This document shows, in pieces, positions 3,231-64,000 of a stretch of DNA of 64,000 bases. How positions within the stretch are numbered: position 1 is the stretch's first letter; every line of letters begins with the position of its first letter. The notes beneath the pieces were generated by a model. That model was not told where the DNA came from, did no database searches, and saw nothing but the letters and a program-made list of their open reading frames with translations. The position numbers and the translations under genes were made by a program. This stretch comes from Squalus acanthias (taxonomy: Eukaryota), in contig CM059432.1 in assembly GCA_030390025.1 (NCBI GenBank), positions 20,338,001 through 20,402,000 on the forward strand, read 5' to 3'.

Positions 3231-3632
3231 CATAATCTATTTTATCAGTCACATACTCAGTCATCGAGGAGGTTCTTCAGGCAGGATTGCTCACTTCATG
3301 TCCATGCTGGTTGTTTAAGCTATTGGTATACGCAATATATTTGGGTAGAACAAATGAAGGACAGAGATATGATGGGTTGCTAGTCCATATGCTTGTTTTA
3401 CTAGGCCAGAGCGAACTGAGCATGCTCAAAACAAACCATGTGACAAACCATGTGATAACACATTACACTGCTTCCCCCTTAAAAAAAGTTACACTGCTTC
3501 CCACTTAATAAAAAGTATGTATTCTCCTCTCAAATACAACAAAACTGTGGTCCCACCTTTCCCAGCATTACATGCACCACATAACAAAACTCCTGGCTTT
3601 TTTTAAAATGAATTACAAATCCTACATATGAA

Positions 3633-6600
3633 CTACACATTCAGTTTAATAACAGGTTTGCGGAGCCTTCCTGATCTCCTTAAAAAAGGTTTTGGTGTTG
3701 AACCAATTTTCAGGCTGTTTTGTTCTGGTTCTGAACTCATAGAAGTAGGTACCACCACGCTGTTTCCCCACTTGATACAACCTTGCTCACAAGACAATTC
3801 AGTACGACGGTTATGGAATGGTTTCAAATCTGTGTTCATACACTGATCAGTCCATCCATTCAAGGTGTTTTCATACACTCTTTTCAGTAATGAATCCTTT
3901 TGAGACTCATTTGCAAGCTCAGCTGCATTCACAGGAAAGTCTTTGTCAACTGCACCTAGCATGAAAATCACACTCTCTCTCCCAACACGAGTCCTCATGT
4001 GGCAATCTGGACAAGGCATCTGTGATTGCATTTTGCTTTGTAGTGCGATATTCAATCGTGTAGTCATATTGTGACAACAACACTGCCCAACATTGCATTC
4101 TTGATGCGACCATTGCAGTGACAGCAGATTTGGGTCCCAATATTCCTAGGAGCGGTTTGCGATCGGTTATCAGGGTAAACTTTCTGCCGATCAGGAACTG
4201 TTGAATTTTCTTGATTCCAAACACTGTGGCGAGTGCTTCCTTTTCAATTCACGCGTAGTTTCTTTCGCTCTGAGGGTTTGCGATGCGAACACGATTGGCT
4301 TCTCTTGGTCGTCATCCATTACGTGGCTTATGACAGCTCCCACACCGTAGCTAGAAGCATCACATGCTAACTTAAGCTCACTTCTCTTACAAGCGTCGTA
4401 AGCTTCCTGTTGCACTTTTGTCCACTTCACTGGACATTCTTCTTGAGGAGCTCATGCAATGGAGCTAACATGGTCGCTAACTCAGGTAAGAAACGTGTGT
4501 AGTACTGGACCATTCCAAGGAAAGATCTTAACTCAGACACGTTCTGTTGTAATGGAATAAGCCATATTCCAAGAAATGCATCATCCTATGAACAGATTTT
4601 GATATTATTAATACAAGACATACTGAGTTTAAAAGTCTGGAGAGCCTTGGCAACACAGGCTGCAAACACAATACAGGCTTCTGAGATAAGATGAACTGTT
4701 AACCAAAGCTGTAAAACACCACAAACTTTGAAATGGGAGATGGTTGTAAACACAAAAACAATGCCCCGATTGAAGCAATCCATTGGCACTTCCAGAAGGT
4801 CTGGAGTTTGGGAGAAACACAATGGAATGACCCAAGTAAAGTGTTATAAGCTAACACTCAGGGAAACAGAAACTTAGAACATTAAACAACCATATGCCTT
4901 CATTAAGTAACATCAATAAGACAGGAAACACGATTAAATATGCAACCAATTGAGATAGCAAGAAAACAAGTAAACACCCTTAGAGAAGTGTTTTCAATTT
5001 ACAAATTGTAAAAGATACCTACAGAGAGGCTTTGAAAATATAATATCAATAGATGACACCAAACAATCACATTGTTTATGTGTTAAACTTGGAACACCAC
5101 GGAGTCACGACGTCTGGCTTACAAGCAGTTAAGTGATATTAAGGATTCAATAGAAAGACTTCCTAAGAATGGCATCAAATAGATAAATCGATAATAACCA
5201 TTTTATGATAGTTTTTGAAACACCTAAAGGTAGAGACAGAATTCTAAAAGTTGGCAGCTGAAATGACAGTAAGAATAGAAAAGAATTCAATAAAGAATCA
5301 CTAGAGATAATTAGCTTACATCAGCAGGAAACTTCAAAGAAAATACCACTAAAAAAAGGTATAAAAATAGAGCTTTTCAGATAGAGAGTCAGAAGTCGCT
5401 GGAAGGGCAAGCGTTTCTCAACTTCACAGGCACGCTCTGTAAGTTTTTAAACTCTGAGTCTCGGGTAAACAAGGTATTTGATTTTGCTGGATATTCTGGA
5501 TTAAGCAATAAGTAGAAGTGTGGAAATGTAACGAAGTTAAGATTTGAGAATAAGGATCTCTGATAAGAAATGTAAGCTATTTGTATTTTGAACGGTTAAA
5601 GTTGCGATTGCCATACCAGCTGTTAACTAGATGTCGGTTCTTCAATAAATCTATATATTTTTAAATTGTCTCAAAGATTATTTCTGTATCAATCTCGCAA
5701 ACTCAATTTCTGCACACTCTTCAGTGAGGAGTTGCAGAATTCGGGGGGGTTTTCCGGACTCTCATAATATCCGGAAGGTTACAGTCTAGTTAAACATGTT
5801 AAAAGTGCTAGCCGGAGGACGGTAACATCTTCAGGCCGTTTCTTTCCTTTAGGGAGAGGTAGTCTGACCTTGAGATCCAATTAAGCGTCTCTAGGATTCG
5901 GCTACCGCTAACTTTAGTTGAAGGTGAATGTCTGGGGAATACGCCTGATCTGGGGTAGCCCGAAAAGAGCTAGGACTTGTAATTATCCCTTCACTGTGGC
6001 TTTGGAGCATTGATGACAGCATCAACCTTTTCCTGCACTGGTTGCAAGCCATTTGCATCAACTTTCAGACAAAGGTACACAACCTCGGGCTGCACAAAAG
6101 CACATTTGCTCCTTTTCAATTTGACATTGTGGGAATTAAACCTTTGTAGCACTATATTCAACACTTCTAGATTTCTTCCTCGCTGCTTGTTGCGATCAGC
6201 ACATCGTCTTGATTGCATAAGCAATTTGGAATTCCTTGCAAAATCTTATCCATCGTAGCCTGGAAGATTGTGGGGGAGGAATTTACACCATACGGCAGCT
6301 TGGTTTATGAGTACAGTCCCTTGTGTGTGTTGTTAGTGAGATACTGTTGATTCTTCTCGTCAACATTCAGCTGAGCGTAAGTATGCGACAGGTCAAGCTT
6401 GGAGAAAACCTTTGACCCAGAGATTGCTGCATACAAATCTTGCGATGTAGGTAGCAGGTACTGCTCATCGTCAACCACTTGGTTGATAGTAACTTTGTAG
6501 TCACCGCACAAGCGTACAGTTTTGTCTGCTTTGGGCACTACCACGATCGGGGTAGCCCATTCACTTTTGTCAGTTTTTACTAGCACTCTGTTCTCTCTGA

Positions 6601-8030
6601 GCTTCGCTAGCTCTTCCTCCACCTGACTTTTCAACGTATAGCGGACCGGCCTTGCCTTACAATAGACAGGCTTCGCATTGGACTTGATGCAGATATGCGT
6701 GTAATACCCAGTGATGTCCTCACAACTGTCTGAGAACATGCTTTTATACTTGTTCAGCATTGTGTCGAGTCGCTTCTTTGAAGCATCCACACTGAAAATG
6801 TTTTTCCAGTCTAGTTTTAACTTTCTCAACCAGTCTTTGCTCATGAGGGTTGGCCTGTTGTTGTGGCTCACTACAATAATAGGCAGCTTTACTGACTGGC
6901 CATTGTGTTCAACTGTACATTTCATTTGTCCACATGTCTCTAGGATTTCTCCAGAGTAGGTTTTTAACTCTACGGTACTCTTTGTAAGTGGTATTTGATT
7001 AAACTTACTCATGATAGAGCAGTCCGCTGCTGTGTCAATACACATATCAATATATTGGTCACTGATGAAAAGTTTTGTACGGATGTCTTTCTCACGACTG
7101 CTTGCATTGCCACTAGTGGCATAGACACTGTAGATGCCGAGTTCTTCAACATCAGGTGTGTTCACTTCAACATTGTGAACTCCTCCCTTTTGTTGTCGCT
7201 GCTTTGCATTGCCACAAGAATGGTTCTTACTTCCTACTTTAGATCTAGCTCTGCAAGCTGTTGAAATCTGGCCTTGCTTCTGGCAGTGAAAACACTTCAT
7301 ATTTCTGTGTTGGCAGGACTGTGAGTGATTTCCATTGCAGGGATAACAATTCACTGAACTGCTCTCACCAACATGCTTTTGACTTGGTCTCACAATCTTG
7401 GGTTTGGCAGTGGCTTTGTGACTGTAGACCTCAGCTGCACTAGTCACTTGAGTTGGACGGAGCTTCCTAGCATTCTTAGATGCTATTTCCATAAATAGGG
7501 GCAATTTTGCATGCTATGTCAAACGTTAGGTTCGGAGTGTTCAGTAACTTGGACTGTGTGCGCTCATTCACCAGTCCACACACAAACTTATCTCGCAACG
7601 CACGATCCAAAAATGTGCCGAAGTTACAATGCAGAGACAGGTTCTTAAGAGCTACAATGTACTCACTGATGGTTTCACTTTGTTTCTGGTACCAAACTTA
7701 TAGGTCTCTGCTATTTCTAACGGCTTTGGGTCGAAATGGTCCTCGAGTTTCTCAACAATGTCTTCAAACAATGCATCTTTCGCTTTCCCTGGCACGAGTA
7801 GATTTGTCAGCATTCCATAAACATCTGGCCCGATCTCGGTTAGAAAAATTGCTTTCTTCTGTTCACAAATTACTTTATTTTGAGCTTGAACATTCTCATC
7901 TGCACCTTCGGTCTCAGTAATGTTATTGGCCCTAAAAACATCTCCATCCGCTCAATGCAAGAACTGAATGGTTCGTGAGCTTGGTCATACATGCCAAGGC
8001 TTCCGATGAATCCTGTAGGTGCGGCCATGA
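3633..8030 (-). pseudogene. Gypsy gag-pol pseudogene (frameshifted, integrase core deleted)
   Basis: Zinc knuckles (CFHCQKQGQISTAC), protease IDTAAD, RT (WATPIVVVPK, FSKLDLSHTYAQL), RNase H (LACDASSYGVGAVISH), then a jump to the C-terminal RRSGRLRKP. Confidence 0.9.
4548..5993 (+). mobile_element. Long (1446 bp) solo LTR inserted in Gypsy pol
   Basis: TG...CA ends and a 4-bp TSD CTGT (4544-4547 / 5994-5997) splitting pol at APKPQ|NVSELRSFLG. TATAAAA at 5360, AATAAA at about 5644. Confidence 0.85.
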
Positions 8031-8338
8031 TTGTCCCGATCCCGTTGAACATTGACTCAGCACCCTGTGTACCTGTGAGAATCAAAGCCACTGTTGTGTA
8101 TACATATACGAGAAGGCGAAGCACAGACAATTCTGCATCAGCATTAACAGAAAAACATCGCAAAAAATTCAGTTTAGGTGTCACAAACTTACCTTAAACT
8201 TTTCCACACGAAGATTGAACATTGTGTCCTTCCATGATCCCTAAAAATGGCTTCCAGATCCCATTCTCATCGCCAAAATGTAATATATGTGGGGAGAACA
8301 AATGAAGGACAGAGACACGATGAGTTGCGTGTCCATGT

Positions 8339-12983: not shown

Positions 12984-13895
12984 TTGACGAAAGGTCTTCA
13001 ACCTGAAACGTTAACTCTGTTTCTCTCTCCACAGATGCTGCCTGACCTGCTGAGTGTAGGCATGCACAGACCCGTAATTCCTAATTTCGATATACATTGA
13101 AATGCTTTGCCAGGCCAAAAGTTTTTTTTCCCAAAGTGAAATAAAGTTGTCACTGATAAGGGACATGGGATTTGCTTTGATAGACAACAGAGAGAAACAA
13201 TCCTCCTTAGATTTTGCAGATATGGCGTCTCTGATGGCTTATCGGAGGTTAAAGTGGAGAAGTCAAACCTTTGAAGTTTTGAATGCAGAATACGACGTAA
13301 CTCATGAACCGAACCAAGTGGTTTTCTGCCACCTTTGTAAACTTTAGGAGTGAATGAACAATTTTGGGCTGTGATAAAAGACAAACTAATGGATAGCGAC
13401 ACAGGATGAGTTAATGTGAACGTTTGACAGCTCAAACAGGTCAGACCAACATTAAAAGGAACATTTCACTGTCTCTGATTGATTGATTTACTGCAAAAGG
13501 CAAGGAAAGCTGTATAAAGCACAGTGGCTAAAGAATATCAGCACTGCAGTCAGAAGAAGGTGGTTTGGCCAGTCATCTCGCCTACGAGGATCAAGTTGCA
13601 GTCGGAGGAGGGGCCTGGCCAGTCTTTTCACTTAAGAGGACCTACAATCAACGCTGGACCGATCATCGGCGGGTGGTTGTATGTATGATTTCCTGTAACA
13701 TTATTGGTGAACTGCTCGAATAGTGGTTGGGGTTTTGAATCTGTCTTAGGAACAATAAAAGGTTAAAGGCAGAACCCGTGTGTCTGGTGTAATTTCTCAG
13801 AGTCTCAAGTCCGAACTCTATAACCTGTTGGACGGGGCGAGGGGTAATTCCGCACGTTTTACATGAGTACTTCCAGCATTTTCTGGCTTTATTTT
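12984..13895 (+). mobile_element. Penelope family A pLTR fragment (12984-13054, 13864-13895) split by a solo LTR
   Basis: TGACGAAAGGTCTTCAACCTGAAACGTTAACTC...GACCTGCTGAG continues as TACTTCCAGCATTTTCTG after the insert. Confidence 0.8.
13055..13863 (+). mobile_element. Solo LTR (809 bp)
   Basis: TGTA...TACA termini, 4-bp TSD TGAG (13051-13054 / 13864-13867), TATAAA at about 13513, AATAAA at about 13754. Confidence 0.85.
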
Positions 13896-14097
13896 ATATT
13901 ATACAAGAGGAAACTAGAAATTATTAAATAAGATCCTTCTGTGTCAAAAAAGTCGTAAATGCCATTTCATATCCATGAAAAGCAGCCTCTCAGCTTAAGC
14001 TGACCAGCTACCTCTCAACAGGTTATACTCACACCTAGATATGACTGCTTCATCAATGAAGTTGCATCTTATAGTACACGGTTAACTGGGACACATT

Positions 14098-14841
14098 GGC
14101 CCAGAAATTGATCTCGCTCTGTTCCCGCGGGGGTAAGGAGCAGGCGCGATCTCTCACTCCGCGTTGGCTTTTTCAGATCCAGCTCGCACGAACTTGATGT
14201 TCCAGACATCAGCTGGGCAGTGCTTGCGTATCCCACCGGCGTAGTGAATTCGTGCGCGCTGTGGGATCACGTGACTCAGTTAGAGCCAATGGCAGCACAC
14301 CATCTTCCATTCATAAGTTTCACATACGTGCTGTGAAAGCTATGAATCTTACACACCCCCAAAATAACAGCTAAACCTCAATTAAATTTTTTTTAAAAAC
14401 CATCACATTAATAAAATAAGTATAGTTAAATAAATTAACCACTTTAAATAAAAAATTAAATTTTTGAAAAAATTTAAAATCTTTTAAAAAGTTATAAAAA
14501 TAAACTTACCTGTCTTTAAAGTCTCTAAAAAAGATATACCTGTTAAAAAAAATTCAAAATAATACTTAATTCACTACTTACCTTGTTAAAAGTGGGTCTT
14601 ACTCCTCCTTTTTCCATTTCTAAAATCTTCCGTCCTTACCTGCGCGTCCAAAGCATGAAGTGCACAGCGTGCGCGCAGCCTGTAGCTCGCACGCGGTGCA
14701 CCGAGGAACCGCCCCCTTTTCCAAAGACCAAGTGCCGGTTTTCAGCGCATGCGCAGTGCATGCAGAAAACCGGCAATTGGAGAGAGAATACGCGAGAGTA
14801 CGCAGTGCGTACTCTGGCGCAGCGGGATCAATTTTTGGCCC
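14098..14841 (-). mobile_element. Non-autonomous DNA transposon (PIF/Harbinger-like MITE)
   Basis: Imperfect TIRs GGCCCAGAAATTGATCTCGCT / AGCGGGATCAATTTTTGGCCC, 3-bp TSD ATT (14095-14097 / 14842-14844), GC-rich ends with an AT-rich core. Confidence 0.75.
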
Positions 14842-15289
14842 ATTATGTTAGATACTCAAAAGCGTTTTCAAGACAAAAATGTATTCAAATCAATTTTTTG
14901 TAGTTGAAAAATAAACAGTTGAAACTCATTTACAATGTCACTTTGTTATTATGATGTTGAACAAATGGAAATAACTATTAAGGTTTATGTATACGAGGTG
15001 TTACACATCTTTATGGTTACTAAGAACCCTTGATACCTAAGCACAGACTATCAACAAGAGGAGAGGAGTAAAGTCAATGAAAATACCGTAGTAAATAGCA
15101 ATCAACTTGGTTTCACAAACAGTTGTTCCTGCATGACCAACCTTCTTGACTTTATTGAGAAAGCAACATTCAAGGCCAATGGTAGGAAGCTCTATTACAT
15201 AACATACCTAGACTTCCAGAGCTCAAGGCAGTGGAAATACCAGGTGTAACTTTGAAGTTTTAAGGACAAGAAATTGTCTCAAAGAGAGA

Positions 15290-25122: not shown

Positions 25123-25207
25123 CTAAAGGCTGATAGCCTTGCCTGGAAGGTCCTCCAAATGGATTCCGTCCACTGAAGCTGCTGCCATCGATAGCCCCAT
25201 ATGACAT
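25123..25207 (-). CDS. TSNARE1: First coding exon (coding part) of t-SNARE domain-containing protein 1 (syntaxin-12/7-like)
   Basis: Minus strand ATG at 25207 reads [28 protein letters not shown]+G, then a TTAG|GTAATT phase-1 donor. This closely resembles the recalled human TSNARE1 N-terminus [29 protein letters not shown]. An upstream acceptor CTGTTTTCCAG| places the exon start at 25253, giving 46 nt of 5'UTR. No downstream syntaxin exons recognised in the window. Confidence 0.88.
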
Positions 25208-25341
25208 TTCTGCTGTGTGAATGGAAGTCTGAAGAGCGCACTTCTGAGGACAGCTGGAAAACAGACAGGTCAAGAGAGATATTAGACATCATTCAAAAGA
25301 TACTTCTTCCTCAAGACTACAGTGAATTTATTTATTAATTA

Positions 25342-40602: not shown

Positions 40603-42048
40603 TATAAAACATTTCCCTGATCTCTGAAGATAATCATACAAAAACTGTGGACTATCAACAAAACATTACTATCGATTAATATTTAACCCTGGGCAGTTAT
40701 TTCCTTGGTGTTTGAAGTGCTGCCAGACCTTGGGTGTGACTGCGGTCAAAAGGACTGCATTGAGGTTAGAGCTATTAATTCCAATTCCTCTTGGCAGAGA
40801 AATGGCTGTAGACCTCTGGAATTTAAGCCTCACACTATATAACCAGGTCACATAAGACAGTCTATCCTGGGCTTGCGTATCATCGAGGTCATTGAGGCTT
40901 ATGTACCCACTGAGGCATCGCAGTCGCTGCGAAAGATACACTGGTGCACTCTAGCTTCAGAACTGGGACCCCAGCAACTGGAGAGAAGATACTGCTCAAT
41001 AAAGAAACGAACGGATAGTGGAATGTGTGGATGCTGAACCAAGGGAAGAAGGCAGAACTGCGAGAACAATACAACTGTGAGAGAACTGTGGAGCCAGTGT
41101 GGTGCAGTGGAGGGGCTGGCAGCAAAGAGCTGATTTCAAACAGTGCAGTGACAGGCAGGATGGCAATTGCTGATGGGAACGTGGTCTCTGTACCCCCCTG
41201 TCATCCATACCAGACCCATCAGTGGATGAGAGCAAGCAGCACTTCAAACAAAATTCCAGCACCGTTCTGGGAAGTAAAAATGAGAAGTGACAGGGAATCT
41301 TTCTAGGTGCGGAGCGCAGCAGATATGGAAGAGGTGAACAGAGGAGCTGACAGCAAGAAACTGTTTACAATTGTAAATGAGCTGAGTGGGAGGAGAGGTA
41401 GAAAGATCACTGGATTCATAATCTGTGAAGGACAAGGACAGAAAAGAATGTGAGGAGGAAGGCTGTGACTCACTTCAGGGCAAGAAAAGTGACAAGAAGA
41501 ACGGGAGTGCTGGCCTAGTTAGCAAGAGATAGGATGAAATGACACTGAAAGAAGTAGAACAGACAGTATGTCAGACAAAGAGGGATCTACAAGATAAACT
41601 AATCTGCCCTCCCCCATGGCCAATTAAACCAAAAATAAATTAATGCGGATACAGGTTTCATTTTATTCACGGTAAGTTCAGGGGACCACTAGAACTGCAT
41701 GGTGGCCCTGTCTGATTGCAAACTTCAATGGAAAAAGAAATGAGAAGTCGCACAACACCAGGTTATAGTCCAACAGATTTATTTAATTTTACAAGCTTTC
41801 GGAGCTGTCGCTCCTTCCTCAGGTAAGTTAGCAGTGAGAGAATCTCCCAGAATTCACAATTTAAACACAGACAAAATCTATTCAAATCTTTCCCTACATC
41901 AAGGACACACTAAGAGCACAGCCAAGACAATGAGATGTGTCCCAGGGGGTCCAACGTGTCAAACCACCTGCTGGCTGCATATCCTGTCAATTTGTGTTGG
42001 TTCTTGTGTTAGTCTTTTTAAAAAAAAAAACACCTGGGAAGACCGGCC

Positions 42049-43473
42049 ATGATGTCAAGTCACGTTCTGTATCGTGACATGAACCCGATATCGCAATTGA
42101 CGATGGACGTATCGGCACTCTACACCAATATCCCCCACAATGACGGCATCGCTGCGACAGCCTCAGTACTCAACACCAACAACAGCCAATCTCCGGACGC
42201 CATCCTACAACTCATCCGCTTCATCCTTGACCACAATGTCTTCACCTTCGACAACCATTTTTTTACCCAAACACACGGAACAGCCATGGGGACCAAATTC
42301 GCACCCCAATACGCCAACATCTTCATGCACAAGTTCGAGCAAGACTTCTTCGCTGCACAGGACCTCCAACCAACGCTGTACACCAGATACATCGACGACA
42401 TCTTCTTCCTTTGGACCCATGGCGAAGGATCACTTAAAGGACTACACGATAGCATCAACAGGTTCCATCCCACCATCAAACTCACCATGAACTACTCCTC
42501 AGAATCGGTTTCATTCTTGGACACACGAATCTCCATCAAAGACGGACACCTCAGCACTTCACTCTACCGCAAGCCCACGGACAACCTCACGATGCTCCAC
42601 TTCTCCAGCTTCCACCCTAACCACGTTAAAGAAGCCATCCCCTATGGACAAGCCCTGCGAATACACAGGATCTGCTCAGACGAGGAGGAACGCGATGGAC
42701 ACCTACGGACACTGAAAGACGCCCTCGTAAGAACGGGATATGACGCTCGACTCGTCGATCGACAGTTCCAATGGGCCACAGCGAAAAACCGCATAGACCT
42801 CCTCAGAAGACGAACACGGGACACAACCAACAGAGTACCCTACGTCGTCCAGTACTTCCCCGGAGCGGAAAAACTACGTCATGTTCTTCGCAGCCTTCAA
42901 CATGTCATCGATGACGACGAACACCTCGCTAAGGCCATCCCCACGCCTCCACTACTCGCCTTCAAGCAGCCGCCTAACCTCAAAAGTACCATAGTTCGCA
43001 GCAGATTACCCATCTTTCAGGAGAACAGCAACCAAGACACCACACAACCCTGCCACGGCAACCTCTGCAAGACATGCCAAATCATGGACACAGATACCAT
43101 CATCACACGTGAGGACACTACCCACCAGGTACACGGTACATACTCATGTGACTCGGCCAACGTTGTCTACCTGATACGTTGCAGTAAAGGATGCTCCAGA
43201 GCATGGTACATCGGCGAGACCATGCAGACACTGAGACAACGTATGAACGGACACCGCGCAACAATCGCCAGGCAGGAGGGTTCCCTCCCAGTCGGGGAAC
43301 ACTTCAGCAGCCAGGGGCATTCAGCCTCAGATCTGCGGGTAAGCGTTCTCCAAGGCGGCCTTCGGGATACACGACAGCGCAAAATCATAGAGCAGAAACT
43401 GATAGCCAAGTTCCGCACTCATGAGGATGGCCTCAATCGCGATATCGGGTTCATGTCACGATACAGAACGTGA
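42049..43473 (+). CDS. Penelope reverse transcriptase-GIY-YIG ORF (N-terminally truncated)
   Basis: 474 aa with no stops: MDVSALYTNIP, QTHGTAMG, RYIDD, FLD, CxxxxCxxC, VVYLIRC, WYIGET, GLN. Confidence 0.9.
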   Translation: MMSSHVLYRDMNPISQLTMDVSALYTNIPHNDGIAATASVLNTNNSQSPDAILQLIRFILDHNVFTFDNHFFTQTHGTAMGTKFAPQYANIFMHKFEQDFFAAQDLQPTLYTRYIDDIFFLWTHGEGSLKGLHDSINRFHPTIKLTMNYSSESVSFLDTRISIKDGHLSTSLYRKPTDNLTMLHFSSFHPNHVKEAIPYGQALRIHRICSDEEERDGHLRTLKDALVRTGYDARLVDRQFQWATAKNRIDLLRRRTRDTTNRVPYVVQYFPGAEKLRHVLRSLQHVIDDDEHLAKAIPTPPLLAFKQPPNLKSTIVRSRLPIFQENSNQDTTQPCHGNLCKTCQIMDTDTIITREDTTHQVHGTYSCDSANVVYLIRCSKGCSRAWYIGETMQTLRQRMNGHRATIARQEGSLPVGEHFSSQGHSASDLRVSVLQGGLRDTRQRKIIEQKLIAKFRTHEDGLNRDIGFMSRYRT

Positions 43474-43703
43474 CTGGACATCATGGCCGGTCTTCCCAGG
43501 TGTTTTTTTTTAAAAAGACTAGCACAAGAACCAACACAAATTGACAGGATATGCAGCCAGCAGGTGGTTTGACACGTTGGACCCCCTGGGACACATCTCA
43601 TTGTCTTGGCTGTGCTCTTAGTGTGTCCTTGATGTAGGGAAAGATTTGAATAGATTTTGTCTGTGTTTAAATTGTGAATTCTGGGAGATTCTCTCACTGC
43701 TAA

Positions 43704-43742
43704 CTTACCTGAGGAAGGAGCGACAGCTCCGAAAGCTTGTAA
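43704..43742 (+). ncRNA. Minimal hammerhead ribozyme motif (Penelope family B); mirror copy on the minus strand at about 41789-41827
   Basis: CTGAGGA-A-GGAGC-GACA-GCTCC-GAAA-GCTT-GTA: cores, perfect stem II, palindromic AAGCTT. Confidence 0.78.
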
Positions 43743-43978
43743 AATTAAATAAATCTGTTGGACTATAACCTGGTGTTGTGCGACTTCTCATTTTTGTCCA
43801 CCCCAGTCCAACGCCGGCATCTCCACATCATGGAAAAAGAAAAGCACAGTTAGAAAAGAATCGACAGGACATAGGCCCCAATTGAACTCCTCTTCCTCCC
43901 AGGAGAAAATGTGACTTCTCTCCAATAGAATCAGAGCATGTTGCAGCTTAGAAGCAGGCCATTAGGTCTGTGCCAGTG

Positions 43979-45939: not shown

Positions 45940-48842
45940 ACAACTTAGCAAGTCACTCAGTTGTAACAAACAACCACGAAAAGCAGTAAGAATAAAAAAA
46001 AAACGACGGACCGACCAGCATCAACCGAGGCATCGGCTTCGGACACGGCAACGGCACACCCAGCCCAGTCGACCCTGCAAAGTCCTCCTCACTAATATCT
46101 GGGGATTTGTGCCAAAATTGGGAGAGCTGTCCCACAGACGAGTCAAGCAACAGCCTGACATAGTCATACCTTTCCGCCAATGTCCCCGGGTATGTACTGT
46201 CCCACCGGCAGGACAGACGCACCAGAGGTGGCAGCACAGTGGTATACAGTCGGGAGGGAGTGGCCCCAGGGCCTCTCATTGACTCATGAACTCTCATGGT
46301 TTCAGGTCAAGCATGGGCAAGGAAACCTCCTGCTGATTACCACCTATTGCCCTCCCTCAGCTGATGAATCAGTACTCCTCCATGTTGAACACCACTTGGA
46401 AGAAGCACAGAGTAGCAAGGGCACAGATTGTACTCTGGGTGGGGGACTTCAATGTCCACCACCAAGAGTGGCTCGGTAGCACCACTAATAACCAAGCAGG
46501 CAGAGTCCTGAAGGACATCGCTGTCAGACTGGGCCTGCAGCATGTGGTGAGAGAACCAACACGAGGGAAAAACCTACTTGACCTCATCCTCACCAATCTA
46601 CCTGTCGCAAATGCATCTGTCCATGACAGCATTGGTAGCAGTGACCACCACACAGTCCTTATGGAGACGAAGTCCAGTCTTCACACCGAGGACACCCTCC
46701 ATCATGTTGTGTGGCATGACCACCGTGCTAGATGGGATAGATTCAGAACAGATCTACCAGCTCCAAACTGGGCAACCATGATGCGCTGTGGGCCATCAGC
46801 AGCAGCAGAATTGTATTCCACCACAATCTGTAACCTCAAGGCCCGGCATATCCCTCACTCTACCATGATCATCAAGCCAGGGGGCCAACCCTGGTTCAAT
46901 GAGGAGTGCGGAAGAGCATGCCAGGAGCAGAACCAGGCGTACCTAAAAATGAGGTGCCAACCTGGGGAAGCTGCAACACAGGACTGCATGCATGCTAAAC
47001 AGTGGAAGCAGCATGCTATAGACAGAGCTAAGCAATCCCACAATCAACGGATCAGATCAAAGCTCTGCAGTCCTGCCACATCCAGTTGTGAATGGTGGTG
47101 GACAATTAAGCAACTAACAGGAGGAGAAGGCTTCATGAATATCCCCATCCTCAATGATGGCGGAGCAAAAGACAAGGCTGAAGCATTTGCAACCATCTTC
47201 AGCCAGAAGATGCCGAGTGGATGATCCATATCGGCCTCCTCCTGAGGTCCCCACCATCACGGAAGCCAGTCTTCAGCCAATTCGATTCACTCCACGTGCT
47301 ATCAAGAAACAGCTGAGCGCACTGGATACAGCAATGGCTATGGACCCCGACAACATCCCGGCTGTTGTGCTGAAGACTTGTGCTCCAGAACTAGCCGCGC
47401 CTCTAGCCAAGCTGTTCCAGTACAGCTACAACACTGGCATCTATCCGACAATGTAGAAAACTGCCTAGGTATGTCCTGTCCACAAAAAGCAGGACAAATC
47501 CAATCTGGTCAATTATCAGTCATTGACAGTGCTATCAAGCAGCACTTACTCACCAATAACCTGCTCACCGATACTCAGTTTGGGTACCGCCAGGACCACT
47601 CAGCTCCAGACCTCATTACAGTTTTGGTCCAAACTTGGACAAAAGAGACGAATTCCAGAGGTGAGGGTAAAGTGACTGCCCTTGACATCAAGGCAGCATT
47701 TGACCGAGTGTGGCATCAAGGAGCTCTAGTAAAACTGAAGTCAATGGGAATCGGGGGAAAACGCTACTGGCTGGAGTCATACCTAGCACAAAGGAAGATG
47801 GTTGTGGTTGTTGGAGGCCAATCATCTCAGCCCCAGGACATCGTTGCAGGAGTTCCTCAGGGCAGTGTTCTCGGCCCAACCATCTTCAGCTGCTTCATTG
47901 ATGATATTACCTCCATCATAAGGTCAGAAGTGGGGATGTTCGCTGATGATTGCACAATGTTCAGTTCGATTTGCAACTCCTCAGATAATGAAGCAGTCCA
48001 TGCCAGTGTGCAGCAAGACCTGGACGACATTCAGGCTTGGGTTGATAAGTGGCAAGTAACATTTGCGCCACACAAGTGCCGGGCAATGACTATTTCCAAC
48101 AAGCGAGAATCTAACCACCACCCCTTGGCATTCAACTGCATTACAATCGCCAAATCCCCCACCATCAACATACTGGGGGTAACTATTAACCAAAAACTTA
48201 ACTGGACCAGCCACATAAATACTGTGGCAACAAGAGCAGATCAGAGGCTTGGTATTCTGTGGCGAGTGTTTCACCTCCTTACTCCCCAAAGCCTTTCCAC
48301 CATCTACAAGGAACTCAGGATTGTGATGGAATACTCTCCACTTGCCTGGATGAGTGTAGCTCCAACAACACTCTAGAAGCGCGACACCATCCAGGACAAA
48401 GCAGCCCACTTGATTGGCACCTGATCCACCACCTTAAACATTCACTCCCTCCACCACCAGCGTACCGTGGCTGCAGTGTGCATCATCTACAAGATGCACT
48501 GCAGCAACTCGGCAAGGCTTCTTTGGCAGCACCTCCCAAACCCGCAACTTCTACCACCAAGAAGGACGTGGGCAGCAGCGGCACATGGGAACACCATCAC
48601 CTGCAAGTTGCCCTCCAAGTTACACACCATCCTGAGTTGGAAATATATCGTCGATCCTTCATAGTCGCTGGGTCGAATTCCTGGCACTCTGTCCCTAACA
48701 GCACTGTGGGAGTACCTTCACCACACGGACTGCAGCGGTTCAAGAAGGCGGCTCACCACCACCTTCTCAAGGGCAATTAGGGATGGGCAATAAATGTTGG
48801 CCTTGCCAGCGACGCCCACATCCCATGAACAAATTTAAAAAA
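45940..48842 (+). mobile_element. Non-LTR retrotransposon (APE endonuclease + RT), frameshifted; clade not determined
   Basis: VGDFNVHH, LLDLILTN, SDH (APE); [27 protein letters not shown] (RT); AATAAA and A-rich end. Confidence 0.9.
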
Positions 48843-53605: not shown

Positions 53606-54307
53606 ATGTGTGTGCGAATGTAAGATTTATTACAGTTGCACCTAGCTAACCTGACCAGCAGACAAGAGAAATATTTGCAACAAGACTCAAGTAGATAATT
53701 CAAAGAGCCTTCCAGAAGCAACCTCACAGGGTCAATAAAATAAATTTAAAGAATAAATCAGTGATAAACTTGCCTCCTAGATATTCTTTAGCCAATTTGC
53801 AGTGCACCTAGCTTACTCAACCCACATGCACATTAAGTATTCCAACAGGACTTAAGTGGGACTGATGGCTGCCGACATTAAGTAGCAGGGAGCACAACAT
53901 TAAAAGAGGCCTCCTGAAGCTCTCCTGACAAGGTAAGAACATTAAATTAAAAACTAACTTTGAAATTGCTACCTCCATATGTTTTTGCCCAAGTACACAG
54001 GAACATGTTCTAGATGACCGAGACAGCACACATCACTACAAAAGCTCACCCAACAGGGAAGTGCAAGGAAAAAAAAATCGTGATTTTCAAAAACAATAGG
54101 ATTCATTGTAGACAAAACATTCACTACTTGAAATTCTACCACCTTTTCCTCCTACCCTTGTTTTCACCTTACTGTACCGCACCAATGTTTCCAGAGGACA
54201 TTTTGACCCACGCAACAGCCTGTCACATAATGTTTGGGAAGGGGGGGGGGGGGGGGGAGGGTCCCACTTTATCTAATAAGTTACATAATGTGATCCTCAC
54301 AGTGAAG

Positions 54308-54439
54308 AAAGAAACAAAGAAACAAAGAAACAAAGAAACAAAGAAACAAAGAAACAAAGAAACAAAGAAACAAAGAAACAAAGAAACAAAGAAACAAAGA
54401 AACAAAGAAACAAAGAAACAAAGAAACAAAGAAACAAAG
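54308..54439. repeat. (AAAGAAAC)n octamer array as an expanded SINE tail
   Basis: About 16 perfect units abutting the SINE 3' end. Confidence 0.95.
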
Positions 54440-54905
54440 TCTTATATAGCGCCTTTCACAACCTCAGGACGTCCCAAAGCACTTTACAGTCAATGAAGCA
54501 CATGGCGGATAACTCCCCTGGTCTTCTTCGAAATAGTTGTAATGTAGGAAACGTGGCAGCCAATTTGCGCACAGCAGCCCCCAGAAACAGCAATGTGATA
54601 ATGACCAGATCATCTGTTTTTATGATGCTGATTTTGAGGGATAAATATTGGCCAGGACACGGCGGATAAATCCCCTGGTCTTCTTCGAAATAGTGCCATG
54701 GGATCGTTTACCGTTTACGTCCACCTGAGAGAGCAGACGGGGCCTTGGTTTAACATCTCATCCGAAATCAGGCACACCTCTCAGTGCAGTGCTCCCTCAG
54801 TACTGTACTGGAGTGCCAGCCTGGATTTGTGTGCTCAAGTCTCAGGAGTGGGACTTGAACCAAAGACCTTCTGACTCAGAGGTGAGTGCTACCCACTGAG
54901 ACACG
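54440..54905 (-). mobile_element. DeuSINE with an internal segment duplication
   Basis: Reverse-complement SINE. 54500-54537 duplicates 54658-54694. Confidence 0.88.
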
Positions 54906-63527: not shown

Positions 63528-64000
63528 GGGCCAAAAATTCGGCCCTTGCCGGGTGAGTACGCACTGTGTACTCACCCGTAAGGCGTCCTGAAGTGCCGGT
63601 TTCCTGCATGCACTGCGCATGCGTGGGAAACCGGAACTTCCGGTCTGGTGAAGGGGGCGATTCCTAGGTGAACCGCGTGCGCGGTAGAGGCTGCGCGCAC
63701 GCAGCAAACTTAGATTTTTTTTCAGGTTTCTACGGGAGGGTAAGTATTGAAGAACCTGCGCTTTTAAAAAGGAGGCGCAGGACCCGTTTTCAACAAGGTA
63801 AGTGGTTAATTATAATTTTAAAAATTTTCAACAGGTTTATCTTTTTTTTTAGATACTTTAAAGAAAGGTAAGTTTATTTTTAGCACTCTTAAAAAGTATT
63901 TTAATTTTTTTTTAATTAAATTTTTGTTTAAAGTAGTTAATTTAGTTAACTTATAGTTATGTTATAAAAGTGATTTTTAAAAAAAATTATTTTAAGTTTA
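63528..64000 (+). mobile_element. Second Harbinger-like MITE (runs off the window)
   Basis: ATT|GGGCCAAAAATT start. Same GCGCATGCG palindrome, donor series and AT-rich core as the reverse complement of 14098-14841. Confidence 0.75.

Follow-up and report, generated by a model that had tools for sequence, protein, structure and literature searches.

An intron of tsnare1 in Squalus acanthias holds a short repeat whose minus strand, the strand of the gene, carries GC-rich, promoter-like sequence followed by strong splice donor-like sites. The question raised by this locus is whether these signals work for the host gene or are what a larger mobile element left behind. The repeat lies in a 64,000-nucleotide stretch of contig CM059432.1 (positions 20,338,001 to 20,402,000; hereafter the window). 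An earlier note on this DNA had described it as a Harbinger-like MITE resembling a portable promoter/first-exon cassette, which might keep its parent's promoter and 5' exons and donate them to host genes.

A scan of the 64-kb window for pairs of TIRs starting with GG and flanked by a 3-bp duplication (TSD) returned a single match, 14098-14841 on the minus strand, with a length of 744 bp that can be read directly in the sequence. Its 16-bp TIRs are identical at 14 of 16 positions, with ATT at either side. The family has two copies within the window, and the second (copy 2) is 74.5% identical to the first (copy 1) over element positions 1-470. The family-level features are as follows.

14098-14841, minus strand: MITE, non-autonomous, Harbinger/PHIS superfamily (TIR/TSD scan, empty-site contig, Pfam)
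14095-14097, plus strand: TSD ATT, right side in element orientation (scan; single ATT in the empty allele)
14842-14844, plus strand: TSD ATT, left side in element orientation (TIR/TSD scan)
14826-14841, minus strand: left TIR, 16 bp (14/16 match to the right TIR)
14098-14113, plus strand: right TIR, 16 bp (TIR/TSD scan)
63528-64000, plus strand: copy 2, diverged, left 470 bp, with ATT before it, cut by the window end (antisense to the strand of tsnare1)

In Pfam, the two longest ORFs over copy 1 and the one ORF tested over copy 2 matched no transposase or Myb family. The element is short, bounded by TIRs, flanked by a TSD, devoid of transposase coding capacity and high in copy number, and is thus a MITE. 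An Rfam search gave three weak matches (E 0.21-0.72), far under the gathering scores. Metagenome matches to a 20-mer from the element were discarded as unrelated, all 25 of the 25 loci sharing merely a 20-27-nt motif.

Boundaries and mobility were both settled by an empty site. In DNA run X5, one 657-base contig joins 14093 to 14841 and skips 747 bases, with no letters between; since 747 is the 744 of the element plus one ATT of 3, the element boundaries and the 3-bp duplication are fixed. The two flanks of this contig, of 235 and 310 bases, each show three mismatches to the window. X5 carries the organism label of the best-matching runs but comes from a different sample and study; the insertion is missing from a conspecific or very close relative and is therefore recent and variable in presence. 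The MITE at 14098-14841 is a recent, unfixed insertion. At 14013 and 14037 in the flank, the empty-site contig, from DNA of organism A, shows the same two departures from the window as a contig from organism B. All four runs whose contigs were compared give heavy cover over an unrelated short high-copy repeat at 13844-13896, which lies 200 bp away.

The family is very abundant, its exact number not being readable from contigs. Records from one DNA run matching the 1.4-kb stretch numbered 10,224 (contig depth does not equal copy number), and the ratio of element to flank depth in the DNA run ranged from 23,000 to 183,000 (median 63,000), a ratio that gives no copy number and means great abundance only. 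Small shares of element words in organisms C-I (0.16-0.23) were not counted as evidence. Loose contig ends reveal several subfamilies, one of them resembling copy 2. The sister subfamilies have an additional short palindrome after 14315 and differing sequence at 14138-14145, and palindromes seem to arise repeatedly in this MITE family.

Other repeats populate the window. A Penelope-like retroelement at 41738-43793 has a 483-aa RT ORF (42022-43470, RVT_1) between 294-bp inverted arms that are 99% complementary, and looks very young; a second Penelope-like fragment, with a weak GIY-YIG match, lies at 1908-2705. A decayed Gypsy-like LTR retrotransposon occupies about 3600-8200 on the minus strand, with gag, protease, RT and RNase H-like pieces in broken frames identified by eye; a 402-aa piece of it had no Pfam match. 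A LINE at 46337-48373 has endonuclease and RT domains across two ORF pieces, and a near-perfect 8-bp tandem array (AAAGAAAC) sits at 54305-54440 at the tail of a LINE-like repeat.

Classification rests on the TSD and TIRs. The PHIS superfamily is characterized by a 3-bp TSD and a short TIR beginning with A or G, and the TSDs of its groups are given as TWA for PIF/Harbinger, CWG for NuwaI, TNA for NuwaII and ANT/AWT for Pangu in the accessible text of Han et al. 2015 (PMC4482050). The MITE has an ATT TSD, as seen from the empty site, and a TIR beginning with GG; ATT also precedes copy 2 and stands by the TIR in one more contig. Placement in the broad Harbinger (PHIS) superfamily as a non-autonomous element, which the earlier note had proposed, is well supported by these ends. 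The narrower assignment to PIF/Harbinger in the strict sense fails because the TSD is ATT (ANT) and not TWA. The flanks, ACAC[ATT]ATGT at copy 1 and AGAT[ATT] at copy 2, resemble the NuwaI/Harbinger3_DR type, but they alone do so, the TSD being ATT here and not CWG. The Pangu signature (ANT, with a TIR starting AG or GG) is present, as judged on 2-3 sites only.

Harbinger3_DR of zebrafish, a NuwaI-type element with a CWG target, has a target, AAACACCWGGTCTTT, that resembles the MITE flanks (PMC3016246, accessible part), a TIR starting GGG, and ACAC in the target flank ahead of the duplication (PMC3016246, PMC4482050, as far as the accessible text goes); it differs from the MITE in its CWG duplication (AWT here), and the MITE has no coding region for comparison. 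The Pangu group shares with the MITE an ANT/AWT duplication and TIRs of 11-40 bp starting GG (PMC4482050, including 29 of the 34 family rows of table S3). The 15 host genomes given for Pangu in the accessible text of the same report include no vertebrate, and membership is defined there by transposase phylogeny, and the likeness of the MITE to the group lies in its TSD and TIR.

The host gene is represented in the window by one exon.

25123-25253, minus strand: tsnare1 first coding exon, ATG at 25207, 28 codons plus one base, phase-1 donor (100% to shark TSNARE1 residues 1-28)

The best matches of its product are cartilaginous-fish t-SNARE domain-containing protein 1. The exon at 25253-25123 bears out the earlier placement of the element sense to tsnare1 and downstream of its first coding exon. 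Additional tsnare1 exons were sought in the 64-kb window and none was found; the element therefore lies 10.3 kb into an intron of >25 kb. In human TSNARE1, the exons for a Harbinger-derived Myb-like domain follow the first coding exon (bioRxiv 2021.02.09.430442, accessible part), and the MITE sits in the same intron as those human exons. Because the MITE family is so abundant, the shared intron is most likely a coincidence. Shark TSNARE1 has syntaxin and SNARE domains only. The Myb-like domain, missing from the shark protein, appears in turtle isoforms, which bears on the time of its acquisition.

The left arm holds palindromes, and both arms have promoter-like features.

14796-14814, minus strand: hairpin 1, 19-bp odd palindrome, outer stem altered in concert in copy 2 (18/19 identical to copy 2)
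14728-14780, minus strand: hairpin 2 (core 14733-14775), compensatory changes between copies (core 38/43 identical)
14745-14754, no strand assigned: NRF1-like GCGCATGCGC, 3' arm of hairpin 2 (strict form in copy 1 only)
14660-14701, minus strand: hairpin 3, GCGCGCAC-type palindrome (GCGCGCAC and GTGCGAGC found again in the right arm)
14268-14306, no strand assigned: right-arm promoter-like motifs, E-box GTCACGTG at 14268-14275, CCAAT at 14284-14291 (plus strand) and AAGATGG at 14300-14306 (read from the sequence)

A GC-rich hairpin at 14733-14775 with GCGCATGCGC at 14745-14754, which we take to be the NRF1 consensus, had been singled out earlier; both are in place, and the hairpin proved to be the second of three rather than a single one. 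Three hairpins form in the left 200 bp of either copy (z -7.3 and -6.1, with 0 of 200 shuffles in each case), and folding of the right arm is nothing unusual (z -0.78). Of the 51 consensus pairs, six have both partners changed; hairpins 1 and 2 hold four of these. Hairpin 2 is closed at its base by an inverted GGAAGT/ACTTCC pair, presumably ETS-like, in copy 2 and by CCAATT/ACTTGG in copy 1, so that the motif differs while pairing is preserved. The GCGCATGCGC 10-mer occurs once in the 64 kb and appears in 119 of 20,000 shuffles of the GC-rich arm, a count for a motif picked after being seen; copy 2 has GCGCATGCGT instead, in which the last base differs. The idea that NRF1 binding caused the conservation was not upheld: the site is one arm of a hairpin whose neighbouring motifs vary with pairing kept, and palindromy therefore explains the conservation at least as well. 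Template switching can correct palindromes and thereby produce compensatory changes without selection.

The presence of GCGCGCAC and GTGCGAGC in both arms is as expected for predicted subterminal binding sites, and hairpin 1 resembles what we take to be the 9-bp palindromic Myb-binding motif of Harbinger3_DR. The right-arm motifs, for which the names E-box, CCAAT and AAGATGG are assumed here, are perhaps the remnant of a second parental promoter. Harbinger elements are bound at terminal or subterminal sequence by their Myb-like partner, according to the accessible part of one report (PMC13668399), and the available text of another describes palindromic repeats inside a Harbinger MITE of Xenopus (PMC12676858).

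Downstream of the hairpins lie the splice-like signals, of which the acceptors and the candidate micro-exon are called from sequence only.

14634-14639, minus strand: donor-like site 1, GTAAGG (copy 2 and 46% of DNA-run depth have GTAAGT)
14576-14581, minus strand: donor-like site 2, GTAAGT (9/9 identical to copy 2)
14540-14552, minus strand: acceptor-like site A, T-tract plus AACAG, with GT directly after
14525-14532, minus strand: acceptor-like site B, TTTTTTAG
14510-14539, minus strand: candidate cassette micro-exon ending at donor 3, 30 nt if entered at acceptor A, 15 nt (14524-14510) if entered at acceptor B
14504-14509, minus strand: donor-like site 3, GTAAGT (8/9 identical to copy 2)
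14342-14503, minus strand: core resembling an intron, AT-rich with 8-30% GC per 50 bp (AATAAA occurs four times on the opposite strand and is absent from the donor strand)

The sites that the earlier note had picked out were found where it had put them: CAG/GTAAGG at 14639, AAG/GTAAGT at 14581 and CAG/GTAAGT at 14509 (the slash marking the predicted exon end), the T-rich AACAG (AG at 14541-14540) and TTTTTTAG (AG at 14526-14525). Its statement that copy 2 (63528+) keeps the same order held for the motif order and the conservation of the donors; the strict NRF1 10-mer is missing there, and donors 1 and 3 read AGG/GTAAGT and AAG/GTAAGT. Three AGGTAAG on one strand were obtained in 0 of 20,000 dinucleotide shuffles of the element. 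Between the copies, 352 of 469 letters agree overall; identity is 6/9 at donor 1, 9/9 at donor 2, 8/9 at donor 3 and 10/11 at acceptor A, compared with 31/49, 18/31 and 20/21 in the spacers and 102/131 in the AT core. Pooled over this one copy pair, splice signals agree in 33 of 38 letters and spacers in 69 of 101 (p 0.03 by Fisher's test, post hoc). Among the 40 variable places listed of 124, 37 are in the element and 2 touch donors; over 38 bp of splice signals this is no clear depletion. One of these two turns donor 1 into GTAAGT (46% of DNA depth) and the other falls at position -3 of donor 3.

Donor 1 and acceptor A are 100 nt apart in copy 1 and 95 in copy 2, an intron being feasible, and donor 2 and acceptor A are 42 nt apart. 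Every micro-exon candidate has a length divisible by three, 30 and 15 nt in copy 1 and 33 and 15 nt in copy 2, and is open in phases 1 and 2 with a stop in phase 0. This anatomy of exon, short intron, micro-exon and AT-rich intron would therefore read as the 5' end of a gene.

Sequencing data were drawn from 24 runs of 11 studies matching the element, none recorded as RNA and six guessed to be RNA; contigs were compared for 4 of the 24, three guessed-RNA runs and one DNA run. Contigs from the three guessed-RNA runs span the whole element, AT core included, and such contigs show neither start nor strand. The 14 joints listed contain no GT-AG intron on the donor (minus) strand and not the donor 1-acceptor A joint (14539 to 14640), and none of the 24 loose contig ends listed, of 456, falls at a donor; contigs show presence, not absence. 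The RNA/DNA depth ratio per bin has no step at the donors, contig depth being no measure of expression. Flank cover in the guessed-RNA runs is patchy and was not used as evidence. The X6 joints from 14113/14117 to 14790 were rejected as splices, the left end of a sister copy having been mapped to the right TIR and the other arm of hairpin 1.

These observations are best explained, with a probability of about 0.68, by a deletion derivative of an autonomous Harbinger-superfamily element that is mobilised in trans, the arms being transposition signals plus promoter remnants and the donors being the first splice sites of the parent. An autonomous PHIS element would have given rise to the MITE by internal deletion, and its proteins would act on the derivative in trans. 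The TIRs and GC-rich palindromic subterminal arms would serve transposition and, judging from the family, are probably sites for the Myb-like protein of the element. What the MITE keeps would be the parental gene start: promoter-like arm, exon, donor 1, 100-nt intron, acceptor, 30-nt exon, donor 3 and AT-rich intron. The splice signals would be common to the subfamilies because the parents needed them, not through host use, and the copy at 14098-14841 would be an unfixed intronic passenger in tsnare1. Retention of the parent's promoter and 5' exon/intron signals, as the earlier note had suggested, is the best explanation and has a precedent in mPing, at least in the accessible text on that element (PMC3782648). 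Weak promoter activity or splicing leakage may occur in some copies. Four points count against the deletion-derivative reading: the ANT TSD mismatches strict PIF/Harbinger; the compensatory changes in the palindromes could stem from template switching; conservation is drawn from two copies and 37 listed in-element variable places, with splice signals not clearly depleted; and a pure passenger leaves unexplained the multiples-of-three micro-exons in both copies (chance about 1 in 27, post hoc).

An unlikely alternative is that the element is a portable promoter and first-exon cassette, in which the left arm is a working CpG-type promoter (with NRF1-like sites, joined by ETS-like ones in the copy-2 subfamily) and many copies splice donors 1-3 into host exons. 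It would account for a promoter-like arm followed by strong donors on one strand, that strand being without AATAAA, for a CpG o/e of 1.1 versus 0.44 in the window, for the conservation of the donors and for coverage by the guessed-RNA contigs, and Harbinger MITEs have served as regulatory DNA elsewhere (PMC3782648 and PMC12676858, in the parts accessible). However, a young element is expected to have high CpG, the strict NRF1 10-mer is confined to copy 1, and the replacement of the ETS-like pair with pairing kept points to structure rather than factor motifs. The insertion is also missing in another individual and is therefore no fixed promoter. The N-terminally truncated TSNARE1 isoform that the earlier note envisaged is implausible because the ATG frames are wrong and the next Met lies at about residue 216. 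From the open ATGs of the element, translation would arrive at donor 1 in phase 2 and at donor 2 in phase 0 but at no donor in phase 1, and adding the micro-exons leaves the phase unchanged; among 10 cartilaginous-fish proteins the next Met lies at 216-217 in 8, one other has Met at 37 and 45, and a short isoform has it at 154.

Quite improbable is a mobile cassette micro-exon, in which sense introns would gain a 15- or 30/33-nt exon lying between one of the acceptors and donor 3, adding 5 or 10-11 residues in phase-1/2 introns (that of tsnare1 is phase 1) and acting as a stop-carrying poison exon in phase-0 introns. All four candidates in two diverged copies are multiples of three despite a 3-base indel in the T-tract, every one is open in phases 1 and 2, 20 of the 21 bases before donor 3 are identical, as are 10 of 11 at acceptor A, and the fit of donor 3 to U1 extends over 10 of 11 positions. 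Against this, there are two copies only, the lengths would arise by chance about 1 time in 27 (a post hoc figure), and a parental exon would give the same lengths. Very short exons usually need enhancers. The insert was sought in 78 TSNARE1-like proteins and found in none, these being from other species that need not carry the insertion. If the element has any effect on the host, a frame-preserving 15/30-nt cassette exon, giving 5 or 10 extra residues in the phase-1 intron, would be more plausible than a truncated TSNARE1.

Equally doubtful is the proposal that the donors are by-products of a degenerate internal repeat unit (T-tract, AACAG/AACAAG, GTA) in the AT-rich core, inherited by descent alone and unused for splicing even in the parent. 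The contexts of donor 2, acceptor A and donor 3 are alike, there is a 35-nt internal match at 77%, and the 42 nt between donor 2 and acceptor A are too few for a typical vertebrate intron. The upstream context of donor 1 differs, yet this site becomes GTAAGT in the other subfamily, and the donor cluster never arose in the 20,000 shuffles. A tandem-repeat origin of the donors was rejected, as Tandem Repeats Finder reported no array there.

Several known elements are comparable. mPing, the Tourist-like MITE of rice Ping (PIF/Harbinger), is a short non-coding deletion derivative, as the shark MITE probably is, and shares with it 15-16-bp TIRs, a 3-bp TSD, polymorphism and a high copy number, but its TSD is TAA/TTA rather than ATT/AAT and its parent and gene effects are known (PMC3782648, PMC7814626, accessible portions). 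It contains the promoter region of Ping ORF1, as stated in the part of PMC3782648 that was available; the donor/acceptor cluster is a feature of the shark MITE. Harbinger-N12A_XT of Xenopus tropicalis is a vertebrate Harbinger MITE that also has palindromic internal repeats, factor-binding motifs and thousands of copies; unlike the 744-bp shark element it is 342 bp long, and 21 of its 3,521 copies are candidate distal enhancers with ATAC support (PMC12676858, accessible text). Harbinger-Snek of sea kraits represents an explosive vertebrate Harbinger expansion with many short non-autonomous intronic variants, some copies of which contribute to mRNAs; in contrast to the signals described here, those contributions are overlaps with UTRs or coding exons, and the accessible portion of the text mentions neither splice nor promoter (PMC8437027). 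In cartilaginous fish, the available passages report Harbingers as undetected in elephant shark (PMC9179366) and name them, with no further description, for the whale shark and the grey reef shark (PMC8455134, PMC12498223). The open literature searched describes neither this MITE family nor any splice cassette in a Harbinger MITE; Repbase, Dfam and subscription papers lay outside its scope, and the family may already be catalogued.

Collectively, the element goes slightly beyond an ordinary MITE in its recent mobility in a shark, its ANT duplication, its compensated hairpins and its conserved, putatively frame-preserving splice cassette. Recent mobility of a Harbinger-superfamily MITE is thereby documented in a shark, a lineage with few such descriptions, together with an AWT duplication of the kind linked until now to Pangu families outside the vertebrates. 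A stronger version, rather unlikely at present, is that a still-mobile shark MITE family of probably tens of thousands of copies, the first vertebrate family of Pangu type, carries a working promoter-plus-splicing cassette. Sense intronic copies would then start chimeric transcripts or add a 5- or 10-11-residue micro-exon (a poison exon in phase-0 introns), and segregating insertions would produce isoform polymorphism. If that were true, introns across the shark genome would be receiving ready-made promoters and in-frame micro-exons from a DNA transposon.
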